Shown: piece after piece, positions 34,667 to 64,000 of the stretch
How positions within the stretch are numbered: the stretch's first letter is position 1
Layout: every line of letters begins with the position of its first letter
Assembly: GCA_900696495.1 (NCBI GenBank)
Contig: CAADGI010000021.1
Span: 43,614-107,613 of the forward strand
Direction of reading: 5' to 3'
DNA from: an uncultured Alphaproteobacteria bacterium
GTDB taxonomy: Bacteria > Pseudomonadota > Alphaproteobacteria > Micavibrionales > Micavibrionaceae
DNA: 64,000 nucleotides
Program-made: the position numbers and the translations under genes
Notes under the pieces: generated by a model
Databases searched by the model: none
The model's input: only the letters and a program-made list of their open reading frames with translations
Told to the model about the DNA's origin: nothing

Positions 34667-35056
34667 GTGGACTGGGGTTTTTTCGACGCGGATTATAATT
34701 CTATAAACGCGGATATCATGAACCTCGTGCGCGATACGGTTCTGCATGAAGGCGGCAGCGGTTTATACAACCTGATCGGCGATGTGAACGGCGACGGTCA
34801 TGTCGATTATGCCGATCTCGTGCAATATGCAGCCACGTTCGATCCGAATAATCCTGTTCCTTTCGTGGCGCCCATCCAAAATCCAATCGGGAATATCGTC
34901 GATCAGGGCGACGCCAATCAGGCGGCAATCGACGCTTTTCTGGCCGCGACGGATAACAGCATTCCTGCGGGGCGTTACGCAGGCGGCGCCAATGCGGGCG
35001 GACCTTCATATAGTGTGGATCCAGAGCTCGTTCACCCTCAAAGCTTTTTAATTTAA
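34667..35056 (+). CDS. in-frame continuation of the preceding ORF, with a dockerin/EF-hand-like DVNGDGHVDYADL motif
   Basis: Same frame as 33653-34609 and open from 34610. No convincing start or RBS of its own. Confidence 0.35.
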   Translation: MDWGFFDADYNSINADIMNLVRDTVLHEGGSGLYNLIGDVNGDGHVDYADLVQYAATFDPNNPVPFVAPIQNPIGNIVDQGDANQAAIDAFLAATDNSIPAGRYAGGANAGGPSYSVDPELVHPQSFLI

Positions 35057-36093
35057 TATGGAACCGGATTCAGGCGGCGGACGGATTCGATATCGGCGAG
35101 CACGTCGTTCGAGAGTTTCAATTTTATGGAATCGATATTGGTCTTGAGCTGTTCCATCGTCGTGGCGCCGATGAGCGTGGAAGTGACAAACGGCTTCTGG
35201 TTCACAAAGGCGAGCGCCATCTGGCAGACATCGAGCCCGTGCTTTTTCGCAACACCCATATAGGATTTTACAGCGTCATTGGTTTTGACGCCGTCGCGGT
35301 GTTCATGCCGGGTCTCCAGCGAGAGCCGCGCGCCGGGCGGGCGTGCGCCGTCGAGATATTTTCCGCTCAGGATGCCGCGGCTGAGCGGCGACCAGGCGAG
35401 CAGCCCGCAATCCTCGTGCATCGCGACCTCGGCAAGGTCGTGATCGAAACGGCGGCAGATCAACGAATATTCATTTTGAATGGATTGCATACGCGGCAGG
35501 TTATGCTTCTCGGCGAGTTTGAGATATTTGAGCGTGCCCCACGCCGTTTCATTCGATAGTCCCACGTAACGGATTTTGCCGGATTTAACGAGGCCATTCA
35601 GCGTTTCGAGAACTTCGAGGAAATTGTCTTCGACATCCTTTGTGTCGAAATCGGGCGAATAATTCCAGTAATTGCCGAAATGGTAATCCTCGCGGTTCGG
35701 CCAATGCAGTTGATAGAGGTCGATGTAATCGGTCTGGAGTCTTTTCAGTGAATCCTCGATCGCTTTCAGGATGTTTTCGCGATCGATGCGCGCCTTGCCG
35801 CCGCGCACCCAGGACAGGCCCGGCCCGGCGATCTTGCTGGCGAGGATGATTTTATCCCGGTTTTTGCGGGCCCTGAACCATGTGCCGATGATCTCTTCTG
35901 TCTTGCCGTAGGTTTGTGCGCTCGGCGGCACGGCGTACATCTCGGCGGTATCGAAGAAATTGATTCCCTGCGTGATGGCGTAATCCATCTGCGCGTGGCC
36001 GTCGGTTTCGGTGTTCTGGTTGCCCCATGTCATGGTGCCAAGGCCGATGAGGCTGACCTTGAGGCCTGTGCGGCCGAGAGTCCTGTATTCCAT
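35053..36093 (-). CDS. NAD(P)H-dependent aldo/keto reductase
   Basis: MEYRTLGRTGLKVSLIGLGTMTWG N-terminus; 346 aa. ATGA overlap with the upstream gene. Confidence 0.85.
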   Translation of the reverse strand: MEYRTLGRTGLKVSLIGLGTMTWGNQNTETDGHAQMDYAITQGINFFDTAEMYAVPPSAQTYGKTEEIIGTWFRARKNRDKIILASKIAGPGLSWVRGGKARIDRENILKAIEDSLKRLQTDYIDLYQLHWPNREDYHFGNYWNYSPDFDTKDVEDNFLEVLETLNGLVKSGKIRYVGLSNETAWGTLKYLKLAEKHNLPRMQSIQNEYSLICRRFDHDLAEVAMHEDCGLLAWSPLSRGILSGKYLDGARPPGARLSLETRHEHRDGVKTNDAVKSYMGVAKKHGLDVCQMALAFVNQKPFVTSTLIGATTMEQLKTNIDSIKLKLSNDVLADIESVRRLNPVPY

Positions 36094-36821
36094 CAGAGTA
36101 TCGGCTTCCTGAATTTCTGCGTATCGATCTGCAGATCCTGCAGGCTGTCGGGCAGCGGCGCAGGAATGTCCATGTTAATGGGGAAAGCGGAAATCGACGG
36201 AAGGGCGCGGTTGAAATTGTCGACCAGCCTGGGGTCCACCTCGCGGCGGTTGATCGTGATTTTTTCGACCAACGTGCCGCGCTCGGGATCGTTCTTGTAA
36301 TAGCACTGGATCGGTTCCATGCGGTATTCTCCGAACGAATCCACCTGCGTGTACCAGATGCGGACCGAGGTTTCGAACTCCTCAACCGTGCTGAGGCGCA
36401 AATGATCCGGGTAGCGCGTAACGCCCTCGAGAAAAACCTTGCAGATGCCGAAGGCCAGCCCGCCCTGATAAGGCTTCATCAGCCAGTGAACGCTGTAGGA
36501 AAGAAGCGCTATCACGCCCAGGCCGATAGCGAAGTAAAATTTTGCCTTCCGCTGCGCCCGTTTCTTTTCCTGGACGCTGCTTTGCGCGATCGCGGCGTCG
36601 ATCTGCTCGTCGACCTGTGTTTTGACGGGTTTTTGTTTCTTGCTTTTCTTTCTTTTGCCGACGATCTCGCGGCCCCTGAATTCGTTGTCGGGCGGCGGCT
36701 TGAGAGGCCCTTGCGCGGCGGAAGAAGGTGTGGGAGGCGCAGCCGGTTGCTGCTGCGGAGCGGATGTCTCTTGCGGCGCGGCTTCAGGCCTGGGGCCGCC
36801 CGGTCCTTTTTCCTCGGTCAT
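36093..36821 (-). CDS. hypothetical single-pass membrane protein (242 aa) downstream of icmB
   Basis: Start moved to the ATG at 36821 (ATGA overlap with the icmB stop). Pro-rich and basic N-terminus, TM helix FYFAIGLGVIALLSYSVHWLM, then a globular C-terminal domain. Confidence 0.6.
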   Translation of the reverse strand: MTEEKGPGGPRPEAAPQETSAPQQQPAAPPTPSSAAQGPLKPPPDNEFRGREIVGKRKKSKKQKPVKTQVDEQIDAAIAQSSVQEKKRAQRKAKFYFAIGLGVIALLSYSVHWLMKPYQGGLAFGICKVFLEGVTRYPDHLRLSTVEEFETSVRIWYTQVDSFGEYRMEPIQCYYKNDPERGTLVEKITINRREVDPRLVDNFNRALPSISAFPINMDIPAPLPDSLQDLQIDTQKFRKPIL

Positions 36822-39800
36822 GCTGCGATCCTGACTCGCCCTGTTCCTTCCTCTTTGGAAGCTGTCTTGCTGGCGACGATGATTTCGTCGACGATTTCCT
36901 CGATGACGGCGCTGATCATCGCGCCGCGCGTTTCGCCGCTCTCGGTTTTGGCGAGAACGCGGCGGCGAAGCTCCGTGCGGGCGCTGCCGCCGGGGAAGGT
37001 AACGGCGAGCATCTGCCGCGCGCGGCCGGCGCCCAGTTTCAGGTACAGGCGGTTGCGGATGGCGACGTCTTCGCTCGATGTTGAAAGCGCCCACAGCTCG
37101 ATGGGGCCGAGCGTGTTGAACAGGTGCTGTTCGTAACGGCCTTCGACTGTGCCGAGAACCAGCAGCGCCGGGGCGCCGATCGATTTCGGGCCGGTCAGTT
37201 TGTTGCGGATGATGTAGCGCGCGGTCTCGGACAGGCCGAAACGCTCCTGCACGTCGTCGACGGCGCGGTCGGAAATCGCCGTGCCGAGAATCCACACGCC
37301 CGTCGCCAGGTCGACCATGTCCTTCGAGAAGTCGTCGAGAAGCTGCGAGGACAGGATGATCTGCACGCCGCGCTTACGTCCTTCGCGGACGTCGCGCACG
37401 ACCTGGTTCCGGACCGAGTGTGATCGGCTCGTGCGGTGGAATTCGTCGTAGCAAAGCCTTTTCGGAATTTCGCTGATCTCCTGCAGGCGCAGTTCGTGAT
37501 ACGGCCTGAATTTTTCAGGGATGTGAACCAGCGCCTCCTTGCCCAGCCACCAGCTCCGCACCAGCGCGTGGCGGGCCAGCATGTACATGATCGCCGTCTG
37601 GCGGTCGGCGGATTCATCGCCCTGCGGCGCGACGTCCATGAGGTCCAGCGAGCAGACGCGGGCGTTGGCGATGTCGAACTGCGTGACCGATGAGAGGATC
37701 GGGAATTCGCGGATCGCCGAGGTGACCATGCGCTCGAACGCGGCGATGACGGTCTCGAAGCTGAAACCGACGGAGGTTTGTTCAAGCAGCGAGTGAATCT
37801 GCGGGCGGCGCGACGCGGTGATGGAATCGTTCAGCGTCGGCACGGCGTGGCGCTGGGCGATGTGCGCGACATGGTACTGCTCAAGCTCGTACATCTTGTC
37901 GACGACATCCCACCAGTAAGGGTCGGCCGGCAGGTGCACGTTGAAGCGGGCCAGCGCCTCGTCGACTTCGGAATCGAGGCGCGGCAAATACGGGCGCGCT
38001 TCGGCGTTGGCGGCGCGATCGTCGCGCCAGCGGTACATTTCATCGACGACAAGGCCGCAAAGCTGTTGCATGCCGTCATAGGGTTTTTCGAAGCCCGGCG
38101 GCGTGCAAAGCAGGGTCAGAAGTTCGACGAGGTAGCTGCGTTCATCGGGCAGCGGCGCGCGGCAGCCGAGCTGCGTGTCGAACGGGTTGATCGCGAAACG
38201 GTGCGCCATTTGCAGGCGGTAATAGGCGGCCTCCTGCTGGCGGTTGAGCGGCAGCGCCTCGCGGATCATGGAGATGAGCCCCGAGGAAGACGGACCGATA
38301 TCGATGACCGCGACATAAGGGAGTTTCGAAAGGCCGGGGCCCACGCAGGTGCTTAAGTTGAGTGAATTCAGCAGAACCGATTTACCGGCGCCCGGCTGCG
38401 CGAAGATCAGGTCGAACCATGTCGTGGTGAGGTTGGTGCCGGTCTGGTAAGGCCAGACCTTGCCGTCAGGCGTGCGGAAAATCATCGAGCCGGCGCTGAA
38501 CGGGCTTGAAGGCCGCTGCCAGGGCATGAGTTTCATCATCTCGGTCATGGGCGCGATGCCGGTCGGCGCGGTGCCGCCGCAATGAATGCCCATGGCGGAC
38601 GACATCACGCAATCGAGCGGGTCGCCCGAGAATTCGCTGACCTGGCAGTAACCCCAGGATTCAACCGCCTGCAGCAGCACCGAGAGCTGGTCCATGATGT
38701 CGTTACGCTGGTCGTAGGTGCACCACGTCGCGAACGACATGCGGATACGCACGACGGGCTCGTTACGCGCCATCGCCTGCAGGCCCTCGAGCGAATATTT
38801 GATCTGCTTGTTGTAGGAGTTCGTCGGGCCGAGAATTGTCGCGATGAAGGCGCGGAATGATGTGGCGTAAACGCCGCCGCCTTCAAGCAGGAACGCGATG
38901 CGGAACGGGATGTCGGCTTCGACGAGACGGTTGAGAAGAACCGGGAAGGCCGTCGCGTCCATCGGGCCGAGCGTCATGTCGGCGCCGGACCAGAATGTGT
39001 TGCCGATACGCACCAGCGATTTGCCAAGCGTGCGCGCATCGGCGGCGGAAATCTGGTTGGCGAGGCTCGGCCAGAGCAGATCGGATAAATCGACCTTGCT
39101 GGTCGGCGTGCGCGGCGGGATCGGGTCGCCCGGCAGGCACGGCCGCCATTTATTATGGCCGTGATCGGGGAAAAGGTTATTCCGCACGGCGCGCACCGCG
39201 TCATGCACCTCGAGAATGTTGCAGCGTATGCCAAGCTCGTCCATCGCCGACGTGATGGCGGTCACGAAGCTGCGGTGACGCGTGCGCAGCGGCTCGAGCG
39301 CTGCATTCGGATACTGTGCGAAGGGCGCGTTGATCCAGTCTTTGGCTTTTTGCTTGGCGTCTTTCGAGGATCTCTGGAATTCGGTTTTGGTCAGGACGCT
39401 GGGCCTCGTCCACAGCACGAAATAGGATTCTTCATGCGTGCAGAAACGCTGGAGGTGGCGGAGGCGCTCCTCGAACAGGTCGTCGAGATCGATGCCGATA
39501 TTGTTGGCGGAGATGCGGCTCGGGCGCATCAGCTCCTCAAGCTCCTCGCGGATGCGGTTCGGGTCGCGGGCGAAATAAACCTGCATGGCGTGGCCCTGGC
39601 GGTCGAAACGCGAGCCGACCTTGATCGTCGCGCCCTCGACGATTTTCTTGAACTCCTCTTCGCCGATGATCTGCCGGCTGCCTTCGACTTTCAGATAAGT
39701 GACCAGCGACCCGTCGGTCGAGACCAGCGTGATCTCGTCGTCAGCCGTTTCGAGCTGAATGAACGACGAAACCGACTGCCGGAAAGCTTTTTGAAAAGGC

Positions 39801-39826
39801 GCCAGTAATTTTTGAAGAACATTCAT
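36818..39826 (-). CDS. icmB: type IVB secretion ATPase IcmB/DotO (TraU-like)
   Basis: 1002 aa (L. pneumophila IcmB is about 1000 aa, from memory). Walker A FAQPGAGKSVLLN. Position after icmJ. Confidence 0.85.
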   Translation of the reverse strand: MNVLQKLLAPFQKAFRQSVSSFIQLETADDEITLVSTDGSLVTYLKVEGSRQIIGEEEFKKIVEGATIKVGSRFDRQGHAMQVYFARDPNRIREELEELMRPSRISANNIGIDLDDLFEERLRHLQRFCTHEESYFVLWTRPSVLTKTEFQRSSKDAKQKAKDWINAPFAQYPNAALEPLRTRHRSFVTAITSAMDELGIRCNILEVHDAVRAVRNNLFPDHGHNKWRPCLPGDPIPPRTPTSKVDLSDLLWPSLANQISAADARTLGKSLVRIGNTFWSGADMTLGPMDATAFPVLLNRLVEADIPFRIAFLLEGGGVYATSFRAFIATILGPTNSYNKQIKYSLEGLQAMARNEPVVRIRMSFATWCTYDQRNDIMDQLSVLLQAVESWGYCQVSEFSGDPLDCVMSSAMGIHCGGTAPTGIAPMTEMMKLMPWQRPSSPFSAGSMIFRTPDGKVWPYQTGTNLTTTWFDLIFAQPGAGKSVLLNSLNLSTCVGPGLSKLPYVAVIDIGPSSSGLISMIREALPLNRQQEAAYYRLQMAHRFAINPFDTQLGCRAPLPDERSYLVELLTLLCTPPGFEKPYDGMQQLCGLVVDEMYRWRDDRAANAEARPYLPRLDSEVDEALARFNVHLPADPYWWDVVDKMYELEQYHVAHIAQRHAVPTLNDSITASRRPQIHSLLEQTSVGFSFETVIAAFERMVTSAIREFPILSSVTQFDIANARVCSLDLMDVAPQGDESADRQTAIMYMLARHALVRSWWLGKEALVHIPEKFRPYHELRLQEISEIPKRLCYDEFHRTSRSHSVRNQVVRDVREGRKRGVQIILSSQLLDDFSKDMVDLATGVWILGTAISDRAVDDVQERFGLSETARYIIRNKLTGPKSIGAPALLVLGTVEGRYEQHLFNTLGPIELWALSTSSEDVAIRNRLYLKLGAGRARQMLAVTFPGGSARTELRRRVLAKTESGETRGAMISAVIEEIVDEIIVASKTASKEEGTGRVRIAA

Positions 39827-39966
39827 GCCGGGTCTTTAACTGAATATATAAATCAACGTTCTAATATATCTTACCATAGGCGCGGCGCATAGGCCGCAAA
39901 GACTAATTACCCATATTTTTCACGGCTTTGAGAGCGATTCCTGCCGCGCTTGCCGGCCGGCCGGGA

Positions 39967-40677
39967 TCAGGCGGCCTTGCTGATGATTTCTTTATAGAGG
40001 GAAATCCACTGGAGGGGCGCCTTGCCGCCAAACGGTCCGTCTTTGGAGCGCCAGTAGGCCAGGATCTGGGGGAACTGGTTAAATTCAAGGTCCGCTTCCT
40101 TGATGATGCGGCGGTCCAGGGGAAAAACCCGGACGCCTTTGAGCTTCCTGGCGCGCATTTCGTAATGTTTCGGCCCGAGATAATCGCGCAGCACCGTCGA
40201 AAGGATATAGGGATTGTCGGTGCTGATACGCTTTTTGGCCTCTTCGCGGCGGGTCATCAGGGAATCCAGCGCCTTGCGGGCGGCGTCGGCCACCGGTCCC
40301 TGCGAAATGCGGGCGACATAAATGGCGCGGGCGATATGGTGCAGTTCATGCTGCTCGATCTCCGGCAGCCAGAGAAGGACGCCCGAGCGCATGGCGCTGA
40401 TCTCGTCCATGATGAAGCATTGCTGGCAGAAGATGCAGGCGGTGACGAGGTTTTTCTCCGACCAGTCGTCGCGGTCGCCGTTCAGGAAATTGACCTCCTG
40501 GTATTTGCGCGACAAAAACCCGCAATAACGGCAGGTATGGCCGTCGCGCTCGAATATCTTGGTCTTGAGGGCGGCCGGCATTTTTTTATCAGCAGGCGCC
40601 GCGCCGGCGGCCTGTTTGGCGGCCTTGGACGGGGGACGGGGGCGCGTGGTGCCCAGAATGATCGGCAAAAGATCCAT
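39967..40677 (-). CDS. icmJ: IcmJ/DotN-like zinc-binding T4BSS protein
   Basis: 236 aa; paired Cys motifs CRYCGF and CIFCQQC; located between icmD and icmB. Confidence 0.7.
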   Translation of the reverse strand: MDLLPIILGTTRPRPPSKAAKQAAGAAPADKKMPAALKTKIFERDGHTCRYCGFLSRKYQEVNFLNGDRDDWSEKNLVTACIFCQQCFIMDEISAMRSGVLLWLPEIEQHELHHIARAIYVARISQGPVADAARKALDSLMTRREEAKKRISTDNPYILSTVLRDYLGPKHYEMRARKLKGVRVFPLDRRIIKEADLEFNQFPQILAYWRSKDGPFGGKAPLQWISLYKEIISKAA

Positions 40678-40779
40678 TTGATGTCCGGTTCGCGCAGAAT
40701 GCGGAAATTAGAAATAAATTTTTAGAAATACCGGCCGCCATGCGGTGAAGCAGGCGGCCGGCTGTAAGTCAGACTGGTA

Positions 40780-41163
40780 TTAGTTCGTCGTGAAGGTGAC
40801 TTTCTTCAGCGTTGCGGCCTGCGATGCAGTACCCGCACCGACGGTTGAGAACATCGCTTCGCTGACGATCGGAATCGCGAACAGCGCGCCGCCGGCCAGA
40901 AGACGGATTGCGCCGTCCTTCAGGTGCGTCTGCGAGGGGTTTTCAACGTGGTCCTTGATCTTCATGATGCCGAGAACGGCAAGCAGAATACCAAAGAGGT
41001 ATGACAACGCAGCCAGAAGACCAGGCAGGTCTTCGATAGATGTCGAGATGTTCTTCGAGATCTTGCTGAAGTTGTTGGCGGCGTGCGCTGCATCGGGGGC
41101 CATGCCCACGAGGCCGAGCGTCATTGCCGCGCCCATTACGTAGTATGATTTTCTAATAGACAT
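40780..41163 (-). CDS. icmD: IcmD/DotP-like small inner-membrane protein
   Basis: 127 aa; signal/TM region, then LAVLGIMKIKDHVENPSQTHLKDGAIRLLAGGALFAIP. Position upstream of icmJ. Confidence 0.6.
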   Translation of the reverse strand: MSIRKSYYVMGAAMTLGLVGMAPDAAHAANNFSKISKNISTSIEDLPGLLAALSYLFGILLAVLGIMKIKDHVENPSQTHLKDGAIRLLAGGALFAIPIVSEAMFSTVGAGTASQAATLKKVTFTTN

Positions 41164-41233
41164 TTTTAGGTTCCTTCTCTAGCGAAGTAGTTGCTCACAT
41201 TAAAACAACGCCTACACTCACCGCCATCCGGCG

Positions 41234-42940
41234 CTAAGTGAACGCGATACCATATTGCGCTACCCCCAACGTGTTTTGCACGAGGTTGATAAGCGGTCCC
41301 AAATTCACAGCCAGCGCACCCCCTACCATGTGGGTGACGCCCGCCATGAGCGAGGCCTGGGAGTTTCCTTCCGCGACGCTTCGGACAATGAAGATGCCGC
41401 GGACGAAACTTATAAGTCCGACAATGATCATAAACTTGATGATGGCGCTGATGACCGTGTGAATATGCTGGGCTTCCGCGGCGCTCAGGCCTTTCGTGTA
41501 TTGCATGTTCGCGCGCGTCGCCGTGAGGCTGGCGCCCGGCGCGCTCAGGGAAAGGGTGACCGTCGCAGCCCGCACGAGGCTGTTATAGGAAAGCAATGCG
41601 CCCGCTGCGGCGAAGGTCATCACCGTGCCGAGGCCGCCCGGACCGCGCGCGCCGTCCTGCGCCGTTTTCATCAGGCGCGAAATGCCGATCATCGCGAACA
41701 CAAACGCCGCGCAGGTCGTGAAGAAGTTTATCGCGACGTGTACGGGCGTCAGCAGGTCGGCCATCGCGCAATACAGCGCGCCGTCAAGGCCGCTGGTGCC
41801 GTTGCAGGCCAGGGCCGCTTCGTTGAACGTGGTGCGCTGGGCGACCGCGGCAATGGCAGCCGTTGTCGCCGGCGAGACAGTATTGCGCACGACCTCGATA
41901 ACGACGGGAAGCGAGAAGAACGCACCGCCCGCAGCGAGACGCGAAACGCCTTCCCACAGCGATGTCTGTTGCGGGTTCAGAACGTGCGATTTGATTTTCA
42001 GGATGCCCCAGACGCCAAGGATCAGGCCGATAAGATATGAAACGGCGGTAAGGAATGCGGGGAATGCGCCCGCGTTGAAGAACAGGCCGCAGAAAGAATT
42101 GCCGAGCGTTGCGCCGTTGCCGAAACCAAAAAGCCCGCTGATTGCACCGAACAGACCGCCGACCGGGTTGCAGACATTCATCCCGTACGATGAATAGATA
42201 AGGCCTGCCGCGCCGAATGCAGACGTGATCTGGCCCCAGAGGTTGGCCGCGCCGATCAATTCCATCATGCCCTGATAAACGATCGGGATCGCGAACAAGG
42301 CGCCGCCCGCAAGCAGGCGGATGACGGATTCGCGCAGGTGAACCTGTTCGGGGTTTTCGACATGCTCTTTCAGTTTCAGCAGGCCGCTGATGCCAAGGAT
42401 CAGGGCCAGCAGATACGCAACGGCGGAAACAAGCGCCGGCGTCTCCTCGATCGAATCGATGATGCTGTCCATGATGGCGTTGGCGTTGCTCATCGGTATG
42501 ATGGCCGCGAGGCTGCCAAGCAGTTGGGCGAGGAAACTTATGGCGGTGTTGTTGCCGTCGAAATCCGGGTTCACGCCCGCGTTGAACGTGACCATCATCG
42601 CCTGGTAGATGATCGGGAGCGCCAGCAGCGCGCCGCCGACCAGGAAACGAATCAGCGAACTGCGCAGCGGTGTCTGCTGCGGGTTGCTGACATGCTCTTT
42701 AAGCTTGAGAACGCCGGTGACGGCGAACAGCAGGGCCAGCAGATAAGCGATGCCGGAGAGCAGCGCGGGCACCTGGTCGCTGGATTCGACCATATTGCGG
42801 GCGATGCCGTCGATCTCGGCGCCGGCGAAAGCGGGCGAAGTGGAAATCAGCCCTGCGGCCAAAAATACGGAAGCGAGCGCATATCTCCAAGAATATGCCC
42901 CGATCTTATTGTTTTTATATTTATTAAAAAACACCGCCAT
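41234..42940 (-). CDS. polytopic membrane protein built from about five IcmD/IcmC-like repeat units
   Basis: 568 aa. The unit (hydrophobic helix)-LK(L/I)K(E/S)HV.NP(Q/E)Q-...-(L/F).(A/V)GGA(L/F)-helix occurs three times, followed by two degenerate units. Occupies the icmC/dotE slot. Confidence 0.6.
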   Translation of the reverse strand: MAVFFNKYKNNKIGAYSWRYALASVFLAAGLISTSPAFAGAEIDGIARNMVESSDQVPALLSGIAYLLALLFAVTGVLKLKEHVSNPQQTPLRSSLIRFLVGGALLALPIIYQAMMVTFNAGVNPDFDGNNTAISFLAQLLGSLAAIIPMSNANAIMDSIIDSIEETPALVSAVAYLLALILGISGLLKLKEHVENPEQVHLRESVIRLLAGGALFAIPIVYQGMMELIGAANLWGQITSAFGAAGLIYSSYGMNVCNPVGGLFGAISGLFGFGNGATLGNSFCGLFFNAGAFPAFLTAVSYLIGLILGVWGILKIKSHVLNPQQTSLWEGVSRLAAGGAFFSLPVVIEVVRNTVSPATTAAIAAVAQRTTFNEAALACNGTSGLDGALYCAMADLLTPVHVAINFFTTCAAFVFAMIGISRLMKTAQDGARGPGGLGTVMTFAAAGALLSYNSLVRAATVTLSLSAPGASLTATRANMQYTKGLSAAEAQHIHTVISAIIKFMIIVGLISFVRGIFIVRSVAEGNSQASLMAGVTHMVGGALAVNLGPLINLVQNTLGVAQYGIAFT

Positions 42941-56413: not shown

Positions 56414-57619
56414 ATGACCGGCATTTCAACTTTGGGACAGGCTTTGGACCAGATCGAGCGCATCAAGGAGCAGCAATCGCTCTTCTCGACGCTTTCGACA
56501 CAACTGACGACCGGCAAGAAAACGCAGACTTTCACGGGTCTTGGCACCGATGTCATGCTCTCGAAGCGCGCGCGCACGGAATTCAATTCGTTCAATCAAT
56601 ATATCAAGAACATCACCAACAGCGACCGCCGGATAAAATTGATGCTGACCGCGATCGAGGAATTCAAGGCGCAGGCCGAGAATTTCGCCGACGTGCTTGT
56701 GAATTTCTCGCAGGAAAGCGAACACCAGAAAGGCGACATCATTTATTACGACGATCCGCTGACGACGGAAATTGAAAACATCCCGGTCGGCATGACATCG
56801 TCCGAGCCCGGCGTTGATTTCTCGACTGTGCGCGAATTCGCGGCCAGCGTGCTGAGCTTCCTGAAGGATCTCGTGAACGCGAAGGAAAACGACCGTTACC
56901 TGCTCGGCGGCGCCGACACGCTGACCAAGCCGCTGGGCGACACCGGCACGCTGGATTCCGCGCTCAGCGTTTTGATCACGTCATGGAAGACGGGAACGAT
57001 TTCGACCGACGACCTGCTGGCCGATTTGCGCGACCGCACGGCGACCGGCGGCAACCCGAACGCCCTCACCGATACGGTCGTGGGTTATTCCGCCGCGCTC
57101 AGCGCCGGGACGGTGGGCAAGGTTTTCGTGCGCGTCGATGACGTTTCCGAGATCGATTTTACGGTGCTCGGCAACGACAAGGCCTTCCGCGACATCATCG
57201 TGGCGGCGAGCGCGATCATGAATGCCGAACTGCCGCCGATGATCGATACATACGGGCCGCCGAATACTTACCCCGGTGTGCCGGACGCGCAGGGCGCTCC
57301 CGGCGATACCGTCCAGGAAATGAAGGATAATTTCTTCAAGATGTTCAACAGCCTGACCGCCATGGTCAACAACGCGATCGACGACATCGACAAGCTGCGC
57401 TTCAAGCTCGAGGGCGTGCGCGCCCGCATCGACGACGTGAAGAAAAGCCATGTCGAACAGAAAAACCTGCTGCTCAATACGATCGGCGATGTCGAGGATG
57501 TCGATATCAACGAGGTTGCCGTGCGCATCCAGCAGTTGCAGATCCAGCTCGACGCGTCATTCCGCGTCACCGCCAAGATGCAGGACCTGACGCTGGCGAA
57601 TTTCCTTCTGATTGGATAA
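56414..57619 (+). CDS. flgL: flagellar hook-associated protein 3 (FlgL), alphaproteobacterial type
   Basis: N-terminal helical segment with QLTTGKK...GLG, and a flagellin-like C-terminal helix (VAVRIQQLQIQLDASFRVTAKMQDLTLANFL). Follows flgK. Confidence 0.7.
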   Translation: MTGISTLGQALDQIERIKEQQSLFSTLSTQLTTGKKTQTFTGLGTDVMLSKRARTEFNSFNQYIKNITNSDRRIKLMLTAIEEFKAQAENFADVLVNFSQESEHQKGDIIYYDDPLTTEIENIPVGMTSSEPGVDFSTVREFAASVLSFLKDLVNAKENDRYLLGGADTLTKPLGDTGTLDSALSVLITSWKTGTISTDDLLADLRDRTATGGNPNALTDTVVGYSAALSAGTVGKVFVRVDDVSEIDFTVLGNDKAFRDIIVAASAIMNAELPPMIDTYGPPNTYPGVPDAQGAPGDTVQEMKDNFFKMFNSLTAMVNNAIDDIDKLRFKLEGVRARIDDVKKSHVEQKNLLLNTIGDVEDVDINEVAVRIQQLQIQLDASFRVTAKMQDLTLANFLLIG

Positions 57620-57627
57620 TTGATTTC

Positions 57628-59229
57628 TTAAGCGCGCTTGTCGCGGATCAGGATGCCGCCGGGCTCATGCGCGCCGGGCTTTTGCATGACCTGCAGTTCG
57701 GGCGTGGCGCTGGGTTCGGCCTCAAGGCCCGTGGCAATCACGGATTCGACCGCGCCGGTGAAATCATCTTTCAGCGCGACGTCTTCCTTGATCTTGTAAT
57801 CATACGACGCCATCCAGACCAGCTCGATGCCGGCTTTCTCGCTCCAGCGCGTGAGAATGTCGCGGAGGCTTTCGCCTGCCTTTGCTTCCCAGGGTTCCGA
57901 AGGTGTTTTTCCCGCTGCGGGGGCTTCGGCCAGAAGCGGCAGCGCGGGTTTTTCCGCCGTATTCTGAACATCCTGCTGCGCTTCCGGCGCTTGATCCGGG
58001 GTTTTGGTGTTCAGCTGCTCGGGCGTCGGCAATGTTTCGGTTTCAGCGGGCTCTGCTTTAGAGGCGGCGTGGTCTTTCGCGGGTGAAATTTTTTCAGGGC
58101 CGCCCGACGCGGTAGCGATGTCGGATAATTCATTGGCGGCTTGTTGCTGTAAGCTTTCACCCGGATCATTGATGTTCGCGCGGCGCAGGCCGTCACGCGC
58201 TGCCGCCGGCTTTGTCTCAACAAGCGCAGCATCGCCCTGGCGCCAGCCGCCCGGCGAGCGGACATGAACTGTTTTATTGACGATAACAGCCTGGAGCTGC
58301 AGCGGCGCCAGCATGTCGTTGATCACCTGGTCCCACGGCTTGCCGCCATCCCATGAAACCGTCTGGCCGACATTGACGCCGGACTCGAAGGAGGTCGCGT
58401 AATCCGAAGGGACGATCTGCTGCAGCGCCAGCGCGAGGGGCATGTCGCTGCCGAAGCCTTCAAGCACGGGCTTGTCGGACGGTTGTTGCGCCGCTGCGGA
58501 GGCGACGACGGAATCGAAGCCCAGGGCAGGAGCCGGTACGGCATCGCCATACGGGCGCGGATTGATGACCAGCTTCTGGCTGTTGGGCGTATTGTCGAGA
58601 GCGGCCTGCGGCGCGTCCTCGGGCATGAAAACCCGCGGCTGTTGCGCAACAACGGGCGGCGCCATCTCGGCAGGTTCGTAAGCGGGACGTTCAAAGGCAG
58701 GCGGCGGCGCGATTTGCTGCGTCGTCACAGGCTCCGGCAGAACAGGGCGCGAGTCCGTAATCGAGAGAGGCGCGTTTCCGGCAGCGGGGGGCGGGCTGAC
58801 TTCACGGACTTTCATCGCGGTGTTTTCCTCGGGCGGCAGCAGCGGCTGGGCCTGGTAACCGGACGGCGCATCCAGCAATGTGTTGACTGGCACATCGTTG
58901 TTGGCGGCGGTTGCATCAAAAGGTCTGAGCTGCGGCGTCACGGGAATAGGCGAGACGGGAGCGGGCGCGGTTTCTGCGCCCGGGAGGGGCAGCACGGCAT
59001 CGGACGGTCCTGCCGGGGGAATGCCGGGCGCAACAGTCACGTTCGGCGCGGCAGGCGTTACTTCGGGCGCGGCGGCGGGCTGGGTCGGGGGAACCCATTC
59101 AAATCCGGCATGCGTGACAGTCGCTCCCAGGGTTATTGCGGCGCCAAAAGCAGCCAGCAAAATAAAGGATTTTCCACCCAGGTTTGTGTTGATACGCATA
59201 CGGCCTCTCATGAATCGGTGTGAAATCAA
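57628..59229 (-). CDS. secreted proline-rich protein with two C-terminal TcpQ/PilL-like beta domains
   Basis: Signal peptide (LLAAFGAAITLGATVTHA) and a long Pro/Ala linker. Motifs QTVSWDGGKPWDQVINDML and WEAKAGESLRDILTRWSEKAGIELVW...DFTGAVESVI. Start uncertain. Confidence 0.55.
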   Translation of the reverse strand: MISHRFMRGRMRINTNLGGKSFILLAAFGAAITLGATVTHAGFEWVPPTQPAAAPEVTPAAPNVTVAPGIPPAGPSDAVLPLPGAETAPAPVSPIPVTPQLRPFDATAANNDVPVNTLLDAPSGYQAQPLLPPEENTAMKVREVSPPPAAGNAPLSITDSRPVLPEPVTTQQIAPPPAFERPAYEPAEMAPPVVAQQPRVFMPEDAPQAALDNTPNSQKLVINPRPYGDAVPAPALGFDSVVASAAAQQPSDKPVLEGFGSDMPLALALQQIVPSDYATSFESGVNVGQTVSWDGGKPWDQVINDMLAPLQLQAVIVNKTVHVRSPGGWRQGDAALVETKPAAARDGLRRANINDPGESLQQQAANELSDIATASGGPEKISPAKDHAASKAEPAETETLPTPEQLNTKTPDQAPEAQQDVQNTAEKPALPLLAEAPAAGKTPSEPWEAKAGESLRDILTRWSEKAGIELVWMASYDYKIKEDVALKDDFTGAVESVIATGLEAEPSATPELQVMQKPGAHEPGGILIRDKRA

Positions 59230-59308: not shown

Positions 59309-59611
59309 CTAGCCGTAATCCGTAAATTTCTTGTGCTGGACGCCGATCCAGCCGGGCCGGTTGCTGCCCACGACCCAGGAACGGAAGTTGCGGATGGCCG
59401 CCGGGAAGGTCAGGCCCTTGCGCTCGAGGAAACGGAAAAACAGCAGCGAGGTAATGAGCAGTAAAAGCGTGGAAAGGCGCGCGTAAACCAGCAATAGCGG
59501 CAAGGGCAGCGCGGCGCGCGCGTCGAAAGCCAGGAATCGCACGGTGCGCATGGAATTGCGCCAGTGCCAGTTCATCTTTTCCTGAAGATTCTCAATCTGC
59601 TGTGCAGCCAT
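59309..59611 (-). CDS. icmT: IcmT/TraK-like small membrane protein
   Basis: 100 aa; HWRNSMRTVRFLAFDARAALPLPLLL followed by a hydrophobic helix and FLERKGLT, as remembered for IcmT. Confidence 0.7.
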   Translation of the reverse strand: MAAQQIENLQEKMNWHWRNSMRTVRFLAFDARAALPLPLLLVYARLSTLLLLITSLLFFRFLERKGLTFPAAIRNFRSWVVGSNRPGWIGVQHKKFTDYG

Positions 59612-59667: not shown

Positions 59668-60828
59668 TTATTGCGAGCCGGTGCTGGCGGCGAGCAGGAG
59701 ATATTGGCGGCGGTCGATAATCCCGGCCTCGAAGACGATCTCCGCCGAGCGTTGCATCGTGCGGCCGTACTGGTTGATCATGCGCTGGATTTCGGCAGGC
59801 CATTTCGTGAAATGCATATCCATTAATTTCTCGCGCACTTCCTCGGGGAATTTCATCCATTCGCGCACGCCGATCCGTCCGCCCTGCACGCGTGGCACCA
59901 GCGCCTGCGTGACGACAAGGCGCAGCGTTTCCATGAGTGCCACCGCGCGTTCCTCGCGCTCGTTCATTTCGTAGGTCGAGAGCATACGCTGGACGGTGTT
60001 CGCGACGCCGAGCGTGTGCGTCGTGGTGTAGACGGCGTGGCCGGTCTGCGCCGCTTCGATTGACGCGTTGATCGTTTCACGGTCGCGCGCCTCGCCGACG
60101 AGAATGACTTCGGGCTTGCGGCGGAGCGAGTTCCTGATACCGGCGGCGAAGCTCGGCAGGTGACGGGGAATTTCCGATTGCGCGACCAGCGAGCGCGGGC
60201 TGTTGATCGCGTCGTAAACATATTCGATCGGCGATTCATAGGTCAGCATCTTGCCGCAGCCTTGCGGGCGCTCGAGCAGCAACCTGTTGCCCGCCGCGAG
60301 CAGCGTGGTTTTACCGGAACCTGTCGGGCCGGTGATGATGACGATGCCCTGGCGCGGCGCCCACGCATCGATGATTTCGCGCTCGATCTTGAGGTCTTTC
60401 ATCGTCGGCGGTTCGCTTGGCAGAACCCGCATCGTGATCTGCGCCGCGTCGCGGCCCTTGGACAGAATGGCGGTGATGTTGACGCGGAAACGGATGCGCG
60501 TGTAGCGGTCCGGGCGGATTTCGTAGGAAACGTCGAGGTCCTTGCCCGCGGCGAGGCGTGCGAGCGCTTCGGGCCCGTAAATGCGCGTCAGGAACACGGC
60601 CATGTCGGCGGCGTCGATCTTGCGGATCGTGCCGGGATAAAGATGGCCGTGAATTTCGTTGTAGGGCTGGCGGTCGGACTGGATGGAGATATCGGAAGCG
60701 CCTTGCTTGACGCACCATAAAAGAAACGGATCGACTGCGTCTTCGGTGAACCGGTTTGGCTCGTCGGGCCAGGTTTGCGCCGAAGTGTCTTCTTTTTTGA
60801 TAAGGCTTATCGGTTTGCGGGCTGCCAT
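59668..60828 (-). CDS. dotB: DotB secretion ATPase (PilT/VirB11 superfamily)
   Basis: 386 aa; PDEPNRF N-terminus, Walker A GPTGSGKTT, GEARD, His box TTHT. Confidence 0.85.
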   Translation of the reverse strand: MAARKPISLIKKEDTSAQTWPDEPNRFTEDAVDPFLLWCVKQGASDISIQSDRQPYNEIHGHLYPGTIRKIDAADMAVFLTRIYGPEALARLAAGKDLDVSYEIRPDRYTRIRFRVNITAILSKGRDAAQITMRVLPSEPPTMKDLKIEREIIDAWAPRQGIVIITGPTGSGKTTLLAAGNRLLLERPQGCGKMLTYESPIEYVYDAINSPRSLVAQSEIPRHLPSFAAGIRNSLRRKPEVILVGEARDRETINASIEAAQTGHAVYTTTHTLGVANTVQRMLSTYEMNEREERAVALMETLRLVVTQALVPRVQGGRIGVREWMKFPEEVREKLMDMHFTKWPAEIQRMINQYGRTMQRSAEIVFEAGIIDRRQYLLLAASTGSQ

Positions 60829-61895
60829 TGCTCCGATCCGGTTATGAGTTCCGATGCGCCGGTGATCTGTACGGCGCGGTCGCCGACCCGCATTTGATTG
60901 CCATCGCCCGTGACGCCGCGGTCAACCTGCAACGCGTAGGGCGGCGAAACCATGCCCTGCGTCAGCAGGATGCGGTAGCGCACCATGCCCTGAAAATCCG
61001 CCTGCAGGAGATTGAGGTCGTCCTGGAAAATCTCATCGGCCTGCTTCACGCCTTCGTCCCAGCCCTTGGCGACAAGCTCCCGCCAGATCTGGCGCTCCTC
61101 GTCGTTTTCGGGGCGCAGGATATCCGGCGGCGGCTCGACCTCGCCCCATTCCCGCTCGAGATAGGTCCGCCATGTCCGCGCGCTGGAGACGATTTTCGCG
61201 TTGTTGACGATGTTATAAAGCGCATCGGAAACGGCCGCCTGCTGCCCGCCATCCTCGATCAGCATCGCGTTCAGCGATTCATTGATGATCGGCGGCTCGA
61301 TTAAAAATCCCGAAGGGGCCGGAATCAAAAGCTGGCGGAAATTGTAAACCTTGTCCATCGCGCGCGCGCTTTTTTCAAGGTCGCCCCGGATGTAATAAGT
61401 GCGCCAGGCCAGGCCGCCGCGCGCGCCATAGGAAATCGCGGCTTCGCGCAGGGCATCGCGGCGGATGTCGAATGTCATACCGGTTTCACCTTCGACGATC
61501 GTGTTCTCGCGCTCGAGATTTTTCAGATCATCAAGACGCGGCGGCGCCGCGTTGGTGCCGACGGTTTCCTTCTCGAGATCTTCGTACATCACGCGCTTGG
61601 TTTTTACCTTTGGCTCCTCGGGTTCTCCGGGCATGCCTGGCATGCCGGGATAGTAAGGCGTGTAAGGCTGCTGGTATCCGTAAGGCTGGGGCTGGCCCGA
61701 CGTCGGGACCGTGGCAAGCTGCTGGAAGGGATTGATCTGCGCCTGCGCGGCGGTCTGGGTTTGCTGCTGCTGCGCGGTTTCGTTGGCTTCGGCCTTGATG
61801 TCCTGCGCAAAAGCGGGCGTCACGGCAAGCGCAAGCAACGCGGCGAAAATGGCCGGGATTTTTATCCTGCTTGTGTTCATCGTTTTACGCGGCAT
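60807..61895 (-). CDS. dotC: DotC/TraI-like outer-membrane T4BSS protein
   Basis: Signal peptide, Gln/Pro-rich linker, then a conserved core (REAAISYGARGGLAWRTYYI...MDKVYNFRQLLIP). Located between dotD and dotB. Confidence 0.7.
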   Translation of the reverse strand: MPRKTMNTSRIKIPAIFAALLALAVTPAFAQDIKAEANETAQQQQTQTAAQAQINPFQQLATVPTSGQPQPYGYQQPYTPYYPGMPGMPGEPEEPKVKTKRVMYEDLEKETVGTNAAPPRLDDLKNLERENTIVEGETGMTFDIRRDALREAAISYGARGGLAWRTYYIRGDLEKSARAMDKVYNFRQLLIPAPSGFLIEPPIINESLNAMLIEDGGQQAAVSDALYNIVNNAKIVSSARTWRTYLEREWGEVEPPPDILRPENDEERQIWRELVAKGWDEGVKQADEIFQDDLNLLQADFQGMVRYRILLTQGMVSPPYALQVDRGVTGDGNQMRVGDRAVQITGASELITGSEQWQPANR

Positions 61896-61918: not shown

Positions 61919-62428
61919 TTATTGGCCGACACCGGAGTTGGGCGGATAGTGAAGCTCGACAACCCGGGACGAACCGTCAACCTTGATATCCCCGCGCATG
62001 CCGAGCTGAAGCCCGATATTGCGCAGAACATCGATGACCGGCATGTTTTCGACATCGAGAGAGATGACAACCGGCACGACCGGAGGCCCGCCGACAGTGA
62101 GGAAATTATAACCGGCGCGCTCGGCCAGCGATTTGGCGATCGGCTCGACCGGGCCGACCCAGTTGACGGTGACGGCGCGGCGCAGTTCGGTGGGCGCGTT
62201 GCCTACAGGGCCGACGGCGATGCCGGGGGCGCGCGCGGTTTCAACGGCGGCGAGTGTTTCGAGAGAGTTGGCGGCGCGATCGGCGGCGTCGGCCAGCATG
62301 GCGGTGACGCTGTCGGGTTCGGCGACGAGTTGCGGATGCGCGTTGCTGAATTCACGGGCCGGCGTATCGCAGGCAGCCAGCAGCATCAGGCTTGAAAACA
62401 ATACGACGAGAGCGGAAAACCGGGCCAT
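61919..62428 (-). CDS. dotD: DotD/TraH-like lipoprotein
   Basis: Lipobox LLAAC; 169 aa; C-terminal secretin-N0-like domain; first gene of the dotDCB order. Confidence 0.7.
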   Translation of the reverse strand: MARFSALVVLFSSLMLLAACDTPAREFSNAHPQLVAEPDSVTAMLADAADRAANSLETLAAVETARAPGIAVGPVGNAPTELRRAVTVNWVGPVEPIAKSLAERAGYNFLTVGGPPVVPVVISLDVENMPVIDVLRNIGLQLGMRGDIKVDGSSRVVELHYPPNSGVGQ

Positions 62429-62580: not shown

Positions 62581-63003
62581 TCAGCGGCTGGTCCGGACCA
62601 GGCCGTTTTCATGCAGCACGCTGATGACTTTTTTCTTGTACGACGTGCCGAAAAGCGGCGTGCGGGAGTGATAATGCGCGATGGCCTGCGAGAGGCTGCC
62701 GGTTTCATCGATGTGGCCCCGCAAAATCCATGCCGCGACGCTGACATTCGTGCAGGCATCGTCGCGCACCCATTTGCGGGCGGTGGTTTCGCTGACCCCC
62801 CAGTTTCCGGCCAGTTCCGGCATCCAGATCGTGTTGATCTGCATGGGGCCGAGGTCATAGGTGCCGTTGTCGTTCCGGACTTCCTGGCCGACCTTGCCGC
62901 CCTCGACCTTGTAGATCCCCACCAGCACGGCCGGGGGGACGGAATAGGTCTGGGAAGCGAGCATCAGACAGGCTGCGAGAACTTTGCTGGACGCGGCGAT
63001 CAT
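62581..63003 (-). CDS. lytic transglycosylase (SLT domain, VirB1/IagB-like)
   Basis: Signal peptide, catalytic-region E in YKVEGG, and YDLGPMQIN motif; 140 aa. Confidence 0.75.
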   Translation of the reverse strand: MIAASSKVLAACLMLASQTYSVPPAVLVGIYKVEGGKVGQEVRNDNGTYDLGPMQINTIWMPELAGNWGVSETTARKWVRDDACTNVSVAAWILRGHIDETGSLSQAIAHYHSRTPLFGTSYKKKVISVLHENGLVRTSR

Positions 63004-63056
63004 AGCGAATTTACTCCATTAACCGGGGTCTATTTTAAGGGGAAATTTCGATTCCG

Positions 63057-64000
63057 TCACTCTTTTTTAGGAGGCGCCTTGAAGAAGGACATAGGATTGG
63101 ATTCCCCGGAACCCTGCGCTGGCGGCGGGTTTGAAGGGGGAGGAGCGGCGGGCGGAGGGGGCGCTGCGGGCGTGGGCGTGTAGGGTGCGGCCGCGGGCGG
63201 CGGGGCCGGGGCCCTCGAGTTGCTGGAGGAGCCGGCGGACGATGAACCGGCCGGCACCATGGTTTTGGCAAGGGTTTCGAGGATACCGGCGCGCATATCG
63301 AAGGCTTTCCAGACGGATTCCATCCCCACGCCGCCCATCATGCGCTGTTCTTCCGTAAGGGACATCATGCGCGCGGTTTCGGCATCGTGGCAGGCCGCGT
63401 AGATTTTTGCCAATACGCCGAGGAGGGAAAGCTCGGCGCGTTTTTGCTCGTCGTCCTGTAGGCCGGGCAGTAGCGTTTCACGCATTTCCATGGCTCTTTG
63501 CGTCAGCCGCGCCGCGACGTCCATCGCGAGTTTCTGCTCGGGCTGGCCGAAGGGGAAGGACGTCACCGCGCCCACTACAGGAATAAGGGCATGAATATAT
63601 TGCAGGCTGGTTTGCTGCGGGTCCGCAGACTGGCCGAGCGGCTCGAGATGGGTCAGCCGGGCGGCGACATCGGCGCCGGGCATGAAATTTCCGGAATAAG
63701 TCAGGACCGTCTGCAGCGCCGCCGTCATTTTGCGAAGGTCATTGTCGCCGGGCGCCTTGCCTGTCTGCCGGTAATGCGTGCCGATCAGCCCGCCCGCCAG
63801 CGCGGCAAGGGCCACGCGGACGGAATCGCCGCCGTCCGGCAGCGCGCCGAGATCGATGGCCTGGCCCATTTCGATGCTGGCCTGCGTTGTGCGCGCCAGA
63901 AGTTCTGCCATGCGCTGGGCGTCCTTGTGGGTTTCATCGGCCGCGCCGCGCCCCGGCGCCTGAAGAATCGAGGCCATCAGCGGCGTGCCAATTTTTTCAA
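63057..64000 (-). CDS. hypothetical protein with a Pro/Ala-rich C-terminal tail (5' end may lie outside the window)
   Basis: Frame is open to the window edge upstream of the ATG at 63977. Helical body, then an APAPPPAAAPYTPTPAAPPPPAAPPPSNPPP tail. Confidence 0.45.
   Translation of the reverse strand, partial: EKIGTPLMASILQAPGRGAADETHKDAQRMAELLARTTQASIEMGQAIDLGALPDGGDSVRVALAALAGGLIGTHYRQTGKAPGDNDLRKMTAALQTVLTYSGNFMPGADVAARLTHLEPLGQSADPQQTSLQYIHALIPVVGAVTSFPFGQPEQKLAMDVAARLTQRAMEMRETLLPGLQDDEQKRAELSLLGVLAKIYAACHDAETARMMSLTEEQRMMGGVGMESVWKAFDMRAGILETLAKTMVPAGSSSAGSSSNSRAPAPPPAAAPYTPTPAAPPPPAAPPPSNPPPAQGSGESNPMSFFKAPPKKE

Follow-up and report, generated by a model that had tools for sequence, protein, structure and literature searches.

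This work concerns a type IVB secretion system (T4BSS) of the Dot/Icm type in the Micavibrio lineage. It was analysed in a window of 64,000 nt, which is the whole stretch of DNA considered here (contig CAADGI010000021.1 of assembly GCA_900696495.1, positions 43,614-107,613 of the forward strand). The closest match to the IcmB protein of the window was found in Micavibrio sp. UBA7657 (99% identity, on a 430-kb contig). The genes of the system form two runs on the minus strand. Block 1 spans 36093-47674, as judged from the open reading frame (ORF) listing and third-position GC, and block 2 runs from 57628 to the window end. Between them lie four plus-strand genes, m1 to m4, and the flagellar genes flgK and flgL (Table 1).

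An earlier reading made from the DNA letters alone (the sequence-only reading) had described two separate blocks within a range beginning at 35053. Both gene runs are real. Since m1 to m4 were recognised as members of the system and fill most of the gap, the locus is one region of about 29 kb interrupted by flgK-flgL, the only genes foreign to the system between blocks 1 and 2. The range began one gene too early. The gene at 35053-36093 encodes an aldo/keto reductase by Pfam and lies outside the system.

Table 1. Window coordinates of the T4BSS genes and of the flgK-flgL pair, with IncI counterparts in brackets
Gene	Position	Strand	Description
p243	36093-36821	-	242 aa; one predicted transmembrane helix; 4-nt overlap with the icmB stop codon
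IcmB/DotO (TraU)	36818-39826	-	VirB4-class ATPase, 1002 aa
IcmJ/DotN (TraT)	39967-40677	-	Coupling-complex subunit
IcmD/DotP-like	40780-41163	-	Small inner-membrane protein, 127 aa, two transmembrane segments
p568	41234-42940	-	568-aa polytopic membrane protein at the IcmC/IcmD position; DUF6750 match
IcmG/DotF-like (TraP position)	43101-44408	-	One transmembrane segment, acidic/proline-rich linker, coiled coil, C-terminal domain
IcmE/DotG	44447-45694	-	VirB10-like, 415 aa (TraO length), without the Legionella repeat region
IcmK/DotH (TraN)	45684-46847	-	Outer-membrane core protein
IcmL/DotI (TraM)	46997-47674	-	Inner-membrane component
m1	47916-49271	+	TraW/IcmX-family paralog 1; signal peptide, CxxC; all-helical at both ends, loop-rich in between
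m2	49271-50638	+	TraW/IcmX-family paralog 2; coding-type GC at third codon positions (GC3), 0.77
m3	50665-52011	+	TraW/IcmX-family paralog 3
m4	52046-53881	+	TraW/IcmX-family paralog 4; extra N-terminal region of about 230 aa
flgK	53987-56389	+	Hook-filament junction protein (Pfam)
flgL	56414-57619	+	Hook-filament junction protein (Pfam)
TcpQ/PilL-domain protein	57628-59199	-	523 aa; signal peptide or transmembrane segment, long proline-rich linker, C-terminal TcpQ domain
IcmT (TraK)	59309-59611	-	NCBIfam IcmT_TraK 9.9e-23, 80 bits, above the 40-bit cut-off
DotB (TraJ)	59668-60828	-	PilT-like hexameric ATPase
DotC (TraI)	60807-61895	-	Outer-membrane core lipoprotein
DotD (TraH)	61919-62428	-	Lipoprotein; Pfam DotD 3.1e-36, NCBIfam 2.6e-30
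SLT/TrbN-like	62581-63003	-	Lytic transglycosylase; NCBIfam TrbN 2.8e-27
x325	63057-64000	-	Conserved, proline-rich C-terminus; full protein 325 aa, cut by the window end

Core genes of the two blocks

Locus counts refer to the best 80 of 249 GTDB species genomes with IcmB relatives. Component searches covered 164 related loci (84 genome or assembly loci and 80 metagenome loci, up to 23 kb each). All component calls of the sequence-only reading, namely IcmL, IcmK, IcmE, IcmG, an IcmC/D-like protein, IcmD, IcmJ, IcmB, the lytic transglycosylase, DotD, DotC, DotB and IcmT, were backed by profile searches, and all core-complex Pfam matches (DotC, DotD, DotH and DotG) exceeded their gathering scores.

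In block 1 IcmL matched Pfam T4BSS_DotI_IcmL (7.4e-66) and scored 205 bits with the NCBIfam equivalog IcmL_DotI_only, above its 175-bit cut-off. IcmK matched T4BSS_DotH_IcmK (1.8e-77) and Legionella DotH in the PDB (6x62, 3e-47). IcmE matched Pfam TrbI (1.4e-13) and aligned to TraO over its full length (8e-25). Its shortness and lack of repeats, already pointed out from the letters, were confirmed by the NCBIfam DotG match (1e-52), which was restricted to the C-terminal positions 733-1004 of the 1008-position model. The IcmG-like protein gave a weak match to IcmG_DotF (NF038218, 1.3e-4). It was also aligned by hhalign (93.5%, 2.3e-7) with the 394-aa protein that occupies the corresponding place in a Gluconobacter plasmid of mating pair formation class I (MPF_I). 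IcmJ/DotN scored 94.9 bits with NF038221 (4.4e-27), slightly below the 100-bit cut-off, and matched TraT of the IncI1 plasmid R64 at 3.5e-5. IcmB had no Pfam match. It matched R64 TraU (phmmer, 2e-95) and the Gluconobacter plasmid IcmB (3.4e-198), and many of its 1876 homologs are named IcmB by NCBI or JGI.

The IcmD-like protein matched Pfam DUF6750 below the cut-off (8.8e-4) and was 43-51% identical to repeats in the neighbouring p568. These repeats were located by BLASTP at residues 30-122, 151-231 and 269-372, and each aligned to the 127-aa protein with E-values of 1e-20 to 1e-26. p568 has eight hydrophobic segments. Judged from these alignments, it consists of at least three fused IcmD-like repeats and a hydrophobic C-terminal part that follows them. 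Several separate IcmD-like genes replace it in some relatives.

p243 is a partner of IcmB, conserved with it across the order. In nearly all of the 80 genome loci, including those with different flanks, its gene immediately follows icmB. It had no match in Pfam or NCBIfam, and none by hhalign against R64 and Gluconobacter proteins.

Six related loci (L031, L033, L038, L039, L043 and L062) lack the aldo/keto reductase and have a variable protein of 400-560 aa after p243. These proteins had no match to proteins of the window and fell into small or single-member clusters, and the one in L062 had no Pfam match. Their genes may encode cargo or effectors.

In block 2 DotB matched TIGR02524 (2.6e-117, 392 bits, below the 463-bit cut-off), the plasmid TraJ model (245 bits) and Pfam T2SSE (1.3e-34). 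DotC matched Pfam T4SS_TraI (6.8e-80) and Legionella DotC in the PDB (1.8e-44). The lytic transglycosylase aligned with the TrbN/BfpH-like muramidase of the Gluconobacter T4BSS plasmid (1.7e-33). The full x325 and its neighbours were read from locus L001. No homolog of x325 was found by hhalign among R64 and Gluconobacter proteins. Upstream of it, outside the window, lies a gene for a TrbB-like thioredoxin-fold (Dsb) protein that is also part of block 2 and matched the TrbB-like protein of the Gluconobacter DotA operon (2e-15). Most related loci have x325 and the Dsb gene ahead of SLT-DotD.

The TcpQ-domain protein matched Pfam TcpQ (4.5e-15). Its domain was aligned by hhalign (98.6%) with the 72-aa product of the first gene of the Gluconobacter plasmid TraW/DotA operon, and its gene comes after IcmT in most related loci. 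A PDB match of the domain to 9u5s, titled 'Lipoprotein', was ruled out as a DotC-containing entry. A PilL/TcpQ-type protein, in R64 the thin-pilus PilL, is part of the IncI repertoire.

The TcpQ gene of the window stands alone. In seven metagenome relatives (L114, L119, L128-L130, L136 and L138; 12-20 kb) it is followed by four or five co-directional genes, among them a second T2SSE-type ATPase of 520-695 aa. This run resembles the PilL-led type IVb thin-pilus operon that belongs to IncI plasmids such as R64.

The four TraW/IcmX-family paralogs

The sequence-only reading had not seen icmX. The proteins m1 to m4, which occupy the gap between the blocks, are 33-65% identical overall. m1 is 33-37% identical to the others, m2 and m3 share 65%, and residues 227-602 of m4 are 33-39% identical to m1, m2 and m3. 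Each has a signal peptide followed by a CxxC motif. Direct searches with the four proteins found nothing in Pfam, NCBIfam or PDB sequences (single sequence or profile), and nothing by tblastn against plasmids. For m3 there were 1668 homologs. All source-named ones are called 'hypothetical', and the sole precomputed Pfam match was PF03448 on one homolog of 774 aa.

TraW is the accepted IncI counterpart of IcmX. The identification hinged on a bridging alignment of TraW-like proteins from alphaproteobacterial plasmids. The bridging plasmid protein sits between a TcpQ-like gene and DotA, its tblastn matches include genes annotated TraW, and its family aligned with bona fide TraW at an hhalign probability of 98.1. 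A 64-sequence alignment of the m family matched the TraW-like proteins of alphaproteobacterial MPF_I plasmids (probability 97.1, E 7e-11). With R64 and Serratia TraW added to the plasmid proteins the match rose to a probability of 98.1 (E 1.4e-13, 300 columns), with three conserved cysteines in register. All six control families scored below 1%. The m family gave an insignificant match to R64 TraW alone and a probability of 16% with the gamma-proteobacterial TraW alignment (R64 and Serratia) alone. The less diverse m-family alignment A1 gave a TraW match probability of only 6.8%, which speaks against the assignment.

In the AlphaFold 2 models of m1 and m3 (pLDDT 68.5 and 70.7) a long helix at the N-terminus is followed by a loop-rich middle and then by long helices at the C-terminus. 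Among 350,542 PDB chains the best match of both models was a 417-residue chain of the Legionella DotA-IcmX protochannel 9ngy (9ngy_AP1 for m3). These matches were weak (E about 0.5, 0.55 for m1; template modelling score 0.21-0.24). According to the Legionella in-situ structure paper, IcmX is a VirB5-like protein that forms a pentamer atop DotA; its signal peptide is followed by an N-terminal helix, then an extended domain, then helices at the C-terminus.

The m genes were linked to the T4BSS in every arrangement seen, and most genome loci have them beside IcmL. One divergent clade has the order TrbB-like, SLT, DotD, DotC, DotB, IcmT and TcpQ, after which come exactly four co-directional m genes; flagellar genes are absent there, and by position the four copies behave as orthologs. 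Locus L104 has block 2, four minus-strand genes of paralog size at the m position and block 1 in one contiguous cluster, and one of these four genes matches the family directly. From this linkage, the profile-profile comparison and the structures we conclude that m1 to m4 are four previously unrecognised IcmX/TraW-family paralogs, so that icmX had been wrongly listed as unseen. The TrbB-like disulfide isomerase of block 2 fits the system because the IcmX-like proteins have conserved cysteines.

flgK-flgL is wedged between the paralogs and the TcpQ gene, with no other flagellar gene nearby in the window. This placement is common to close relatives and absent from distant ones, and L069 has FlgK beside IcmL. 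A flagellar role for m1 to m4 was considered on account of their position upstream of the same-strand flgK-flgL and of weak Foldseek matches to hook-junction proteins. It was ruled out by relatives that have the paralogs right after TcpQ or by IcmL without flgKL, and also by the Sec signal peptides, the conserved cysteines and the alignment to TraW. Promoter and terminator scans of the central region gave nothing above chance.

Conservation of the locus and comparison with plasmids

The 249 species genomes with IcmB relatives are nearly all labelled Micavibrio, Alphaproteobacteria or 'Pseudobdellovibrionaceae'. The order m, IcmL-K-E-G-(p568)-IcmD-IcmJ-IcmB-p243 is retained in about 45 of the 80 loci. 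In distant genomes the pieces are further apart and lie between accC, argS, secY, alaS, groEL, clpB-like, fabF and trpS. Large unmatched ORFs near IcmB in relatives proved to be PriA, AlaRS, AccC, ArgRS, SecY, GroEL and ClpB-like proteins. The GC content of the blocks is 0.57-0.63, like the backbone, and no tRNA gene or Rfam match was found in the window. The conserved order and the scattered housekeeping flanks across genomes indicate long vertical inheritance and not a recent island. The T4BSS is thus chromosomal and vertically inherited and is not a mobile element.

NCBI taxonomy (taxid 213485) files Micavibrio in Bdellovibrionota/Pseudobdellovibrionaceae, hence the labels 'Pseudobdellovibrionaceae' and 'Bdellovibrionales' of many related metagenome-assembled genomes (MAGs). 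These taxon labels are misleading; gene context and MAG labels here are alphaproteobacterial. A few MAGs with the T4BSS are labelled Patescibacteria or Gemmobacter.

By sequence comparison the gene content is the generic I-type (IncI-like) core that is common to Dot/Icm and R64. The plasmid has the same core in the same order, with traH-I-J-K corresponding to dotD-C-B-icmT and traM-N-O-P-Q-R-(S)-T-U to icmL-K-E-G-C-D-J-B. The block 1 order that the sequence-only reading had likened to Legionella and Coxiella region II is indeed present, but it is not diagnostic, as the R64 order is identical. The Micavibrio locus also has the plasmid-type repertoire of R64, with TraW, a TrbB-type Dsb protein and a short DotG of TraO length, and icmT directly after dotB as in the plasmid arrangement. 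R64 differs in being plasmid-borne and in carrying the NikAB relaxosome, TrbC (DotL), TrbA (DotM), TraY (DotA) and exclusion and primase genes beside the apparatus, all of them absent from the surroundings of the Micavibrio blocks. Sequence identity to R64 is low.

Among plasmid-borne relatives the closest are alphaproteobacterial MPF_I megaplasmids (Gluconobacter oxydans H24, Acetobacter, Komagataeibacter, Methylorubrum and Bosea), with IcmB identities of 38-44%. The IcmB context of the Bosea megaplasmid is atypical. Features in common with the Micavibrio system are a TcpQ-like first gene, a TraW-like gene, the IcmG-like protein, a TrbN-type muramidase and a TrbB-like Dsb protein. These plasmids are mobile, carry DotA, DotL (traGD) and a MOBF relaxase, and have one TraW-like gene. 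In the chromosomal Micavibrio system, by contrast, the TraW-like gene is quadruplicated and no relaxase lies nearby.

The exact correspondence to the shared R64 core and the conjugative nature of these closest plasmid relatives would suit a domesticated I-type conjugation apparatus that is still active in DNA transfer and whose relaxase and origin of transfer (oriT) are encoded elsewhere, for example in genomic islands. Islands of M. aeruginosavorus ARL-13 carry mobA/mobL genes (PMC3189940). We regard such a role as quite unlikely. No relaxase, integrase, transposase or coupling-protein domain was found by Pfam in the scanned non-shadow window ORFs of at least 150 aa, in agreement with the failure of the sequence-only reading to see the first three. 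No tRNA gene or oriT-type accessory gene was found in the window either, and neither a relaxase nor a type IV coupling protein (T4CP) lies within 10 kb of either block in the 164 related loci. Nor is it typical of conjugative elements to keep one chromosomal position, to have native GC content and to be conserved vertically across an order. The non-conjugative role, which the sequence-only reading had favoured as an effector-type system over IncI conjugation, is the better reading.

Proposed function

The outer-membrane and periplasmic core genes found were those for DotC, DotD, DotH, DotG and a DotF-like protein. Inner-membrane parts were DotI, IcmT, the IcmD-like protein and the fused multi-IcmD protein. 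The other parts were the ATPases DotO and DotB, DotN, the lytic transglycosylase, the TrbB-like isomerase, the PilL/TcpQ-domain protein and the four TraW/IcmX paralogs. We lean slightly towards reading this chromosomal, vertically inherited apparatus of the MPF_I class in the Micavibrio lineage as a contact-dependent protein translocator. Such a machine would serve protein transfer and not conjugation, with energy supplied by DotO and DotB. Substrates would be supplied by a DotL-type coupling protein from another locus (annotated icmO in ARL-13) and would leave via a DotA/IcmX-type channel. Its outward-facing IcmX-like subunit would come in four versions, making the paralogs candidates for target contact or prey range.

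Several points weigh against this reading and its extension to bacterial targets. Characterised effector-translocating T4BSS all target eukaryotic cells, and we know of no T4BSS that targets bacteria. DotA, DotL and DotM were not found with R64 and Gluconobacter queries in the window or the 164 related loci, so that the machine of this genome may be incomplete. The icmO of ARL-13 is an annotation in another species. ARL-13 was not among the best 80 genome loci, the 90% clusters or the 120 best matches of IcmB from a MAG labelled 'M. aeruginosavorus'. The text of the ARL-13 genome paper reports no evidence for a type III or IV system (PMC3189940).

DotA, DotL and DotM had likewise gone unseen in the sequence-only reading, which supposed that the missing genes might lie beyond 64000. 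The next 6 kb do not bear this out and contain x325, the TrbB-like Dsb gene, LemA, an M48 peptidase, Bax1-I and MscL. R64 and Gluconobacter TraX and TraV had no match in the window or the 164 loci. Among the ORFs tested in and around the blocks, no Pfam or NCBIfam match was found for IcmS, IcmW, IcmQ, IcmR, IcmN, IcmF, IcmH, DotU, IcmV or DotJ, though such genes may lie elsewhere in the genome; icmQ/R/S/W and icmF/H had not been seen in the letters either. DotN, the partner of DotL, is present in block 1.

In the ARL-13 gene table (PMC3189940, Additional file 4), GMV_383 is listed as 'icmO' (2583 bp). It stands by dnaA-dnaN-recF-gyrB-argS and small hypothetical genes, about 400 kb from hemE as judged by gene number. 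Because of this entry the coupling protein is probably encoded at a third locus. The FlgK gene of ARL-13 (GMV_2433) stands alone, apart from the main flagellar clusters; it is numbered among the last genes and lies to that side of hemE on which the window has the T4BSS, which would fit the layout of the window. Three tandem 'putative membrane proteins' of about 900 aa (GMV_196-198) are also listed there and are unconfirmed DotA candidates.

The unlocated dotA, dotL and dotM near the blocks and the interruption by flagellar genes could also be expected of a decaying remnant of an old integrated element without current function. This is highly improbable. All 20 genes of the locus are intact with coding-type GC3, IcmB is full-length with 61-99% identity across the best 80 species genomes, and the paralog set is conserved.

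Comparison with secretion systems and possible targets

The Legionella Dot/Icm system has homologs of DotB, DotC, DotD, DotG, DotH, DotI, DotN, DotO, IcmT, the DotP-like and DotF-like proteins and IcmX in common with the window, and the block 1 order icmL-K-E-G-C/D-D-J-B is the same. Like the window system it is chromosomal and vertically inherited, with no adjacent relaxase. The window system differs in its short DotG without repeats, in icmT following dotB and in four IcmX paralogs against one. It also has the fused 568-aa IcmC/D-type protein, a TcpQ-domain protein and a TrbB-like Dsb protein. Its host belongs instead to a lineage of alphaproteobacterial predators of bacteria.

DotB, IcmE and IcmL scored higher with Dot/Icm models than with IncI1 models. 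This fit and the eukaryotic hosts of all characterised effector-translocating T4BSS are in favour of a Legionella-style effector system aimed at eukaryotic cells such as protists or algae, with many 'Micavibrio' MAG lineages being eukaryote associates. In the same direction, Needham et al. (2022) list Micavibrionales with pT4SSi beside host-associated lineages, from marine genomes. We consider a eukaryotic target unlikely. Cultured members of the genus prey on bacteria, and no eukaryote-like domains were seen among the neighbouring genes. IcmS, IcmW, IcmQ and IcmN, inferred together with IcmV to be Legionellales additions by Hugoson et al., were not detected in the region. The same authors treated IcmX as Legionella-specific, yet a divergent form of it occurs here.

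A pT4SSi is defined by TXSScan as VirB4 with at least six I-type accessory genes and no relaxase. With proxy hidden Markov models (Pfam, NCBIfam and hhalign), at least 12 I-type genes and no relaxase nearby were found at the Micavibrio locus. Needham et al. (2022) reported pT4SSi in seven marine Micavibrionales MAGs, in one sentence and a supplementary table, and also in Comchoanobacterales. The literature searched contained no gene-level description, paralog analysis or functional proposal for a T4BSS in Micavibrio, and the system goes unmentioned in a 2025 review on contact-dependent predation.

Two type IVA systems offer analogies to the proposed translocator. The X-type T4SS of Xanthomonas, Stenotrophomonas and Lysobacter is a functional one, delivering proteins into rival or prey bacteria on contact. 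It is of a different class (VirB/D4) and has no homologous accessory set, and for Micavibrio such killing is hypothetical. The rvh T4SS of Rickettsiales is type IVA, vertically inherited and scattered over several chromosomal loci, with duplicated VirB4, VirB6, VirB8 and VirB9 and without VirB5. It is an analogy in organisation, with scattered loci and duplicated parts, whereas Micavibrio multiplies the VirB5-like component instead.

In culture, Micavibrio live as obligate predators of Gram-negative bacteria and fasten themselves to the exterior of the prey cell (PMC3189940; 2025 review). The prey cell envelope or cytoplasm would accordingly be the most likely site of action of a protein translocator, and given this lifestyle we tentatively regard bacterial prey as its most attractive target. 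A more specific form is possible but somewhat doubtful. The T4BSS would be a predatory injection or feeding device against Gram-negative prey, with the four ancient IcmX/TraW (VirB5-like) paralogs as alternative or mixed prey-contacting caps that help to set prey range.

If true, it would make this the first known T4BSS with bacterial targets. The system offers a concrete candidate for the killing or feeding machine of epibiotic predators such as Micavibrio. The candidate would be testable in a culturable relative if the strain carries the system, as the icmO entry in the ARL-13 table suggests. T4BSS without an adjacent relaxase extend beyond intracellular parasites of eukaryotes, and the IcmX/TraW family is far more widespread and divergent than sequence searches imply. 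The cap protein of the DotA channel can be multiplied, which bears on target recognition by such machines.

Chromosomal setting and neighbouring genes

The sequence-only reading had placed the system in an alphaproteobacterial chromosome near a putative origin, and the gene neighbourhood of hemE type and the GC skew agree with this. Pfam identified holA, parB, parA, gidB, gidA, mnmE, rho, hemH and hemE at 1.4-17.7 kb of the window. Beyond a low-GC stretch after hemE follow maf, aroE, coaE, secB, a Tim44-like gene and mltA. Such a gene neighbourhood is that of alphaproteobacterial (Caulobacter-type) origins. Cumulative GC skew turns at about 11-24 kb, and block 1 starts 18.4 kb from hemE. A DnaA-box consensus scan showed no enrichment, so the origin is no more than plausible, and an origin-proximal chromosomal setting of the T4BSS is likewise plausible. 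The authors of the ARL-13 genome begin gene numbering at hemE (PMC3189940).

The lower-GC stretch (0.52-0.55) at 18933-24096 directly adjoins hemE and the putative origin. It contains two paralogous putative DUF6782 metallopeptidases with overlapping ORF calls (18933-20288 and 19933-21291). Four small minus-strand genes follow at 21305-24096, two encoding TPR-repeat proteins and two without a Pfam match. The genes of this stretch are possible secreted factors. An AT-rich orphan of 486 aa (28920-30380, plus strand, GC about 0.505) had no Pfam match and has a homolog in the two closest genomes only (L005 and L006). Other relatives keep the flanking secB and o402 without it. The orphan has the look of a recent insertion and could be a strain-specific factor. 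The proposal of the sequence-only reading that several AT-richer orphans nearby and in the ori region are plausible substrates is hypothetical.

Two of the housekeeping ORFs near the origin are odd. The MnmG/GidA ORF (5816-7930, minus strand, 704 aa) has its GIDA domain match split into two stretches, and in the ParA-type ORF (3724-5187, minus strand, 487 aa) the ATPase domain begins only at residue 221. These may be over-long start calls, or lineage-specific insertions or extensions. A pentapeptide-repeat protein (8229-9119) and a 558-aa ORF without a Pfam match (11029-12705), both on the plus strand, lie among the same genes.

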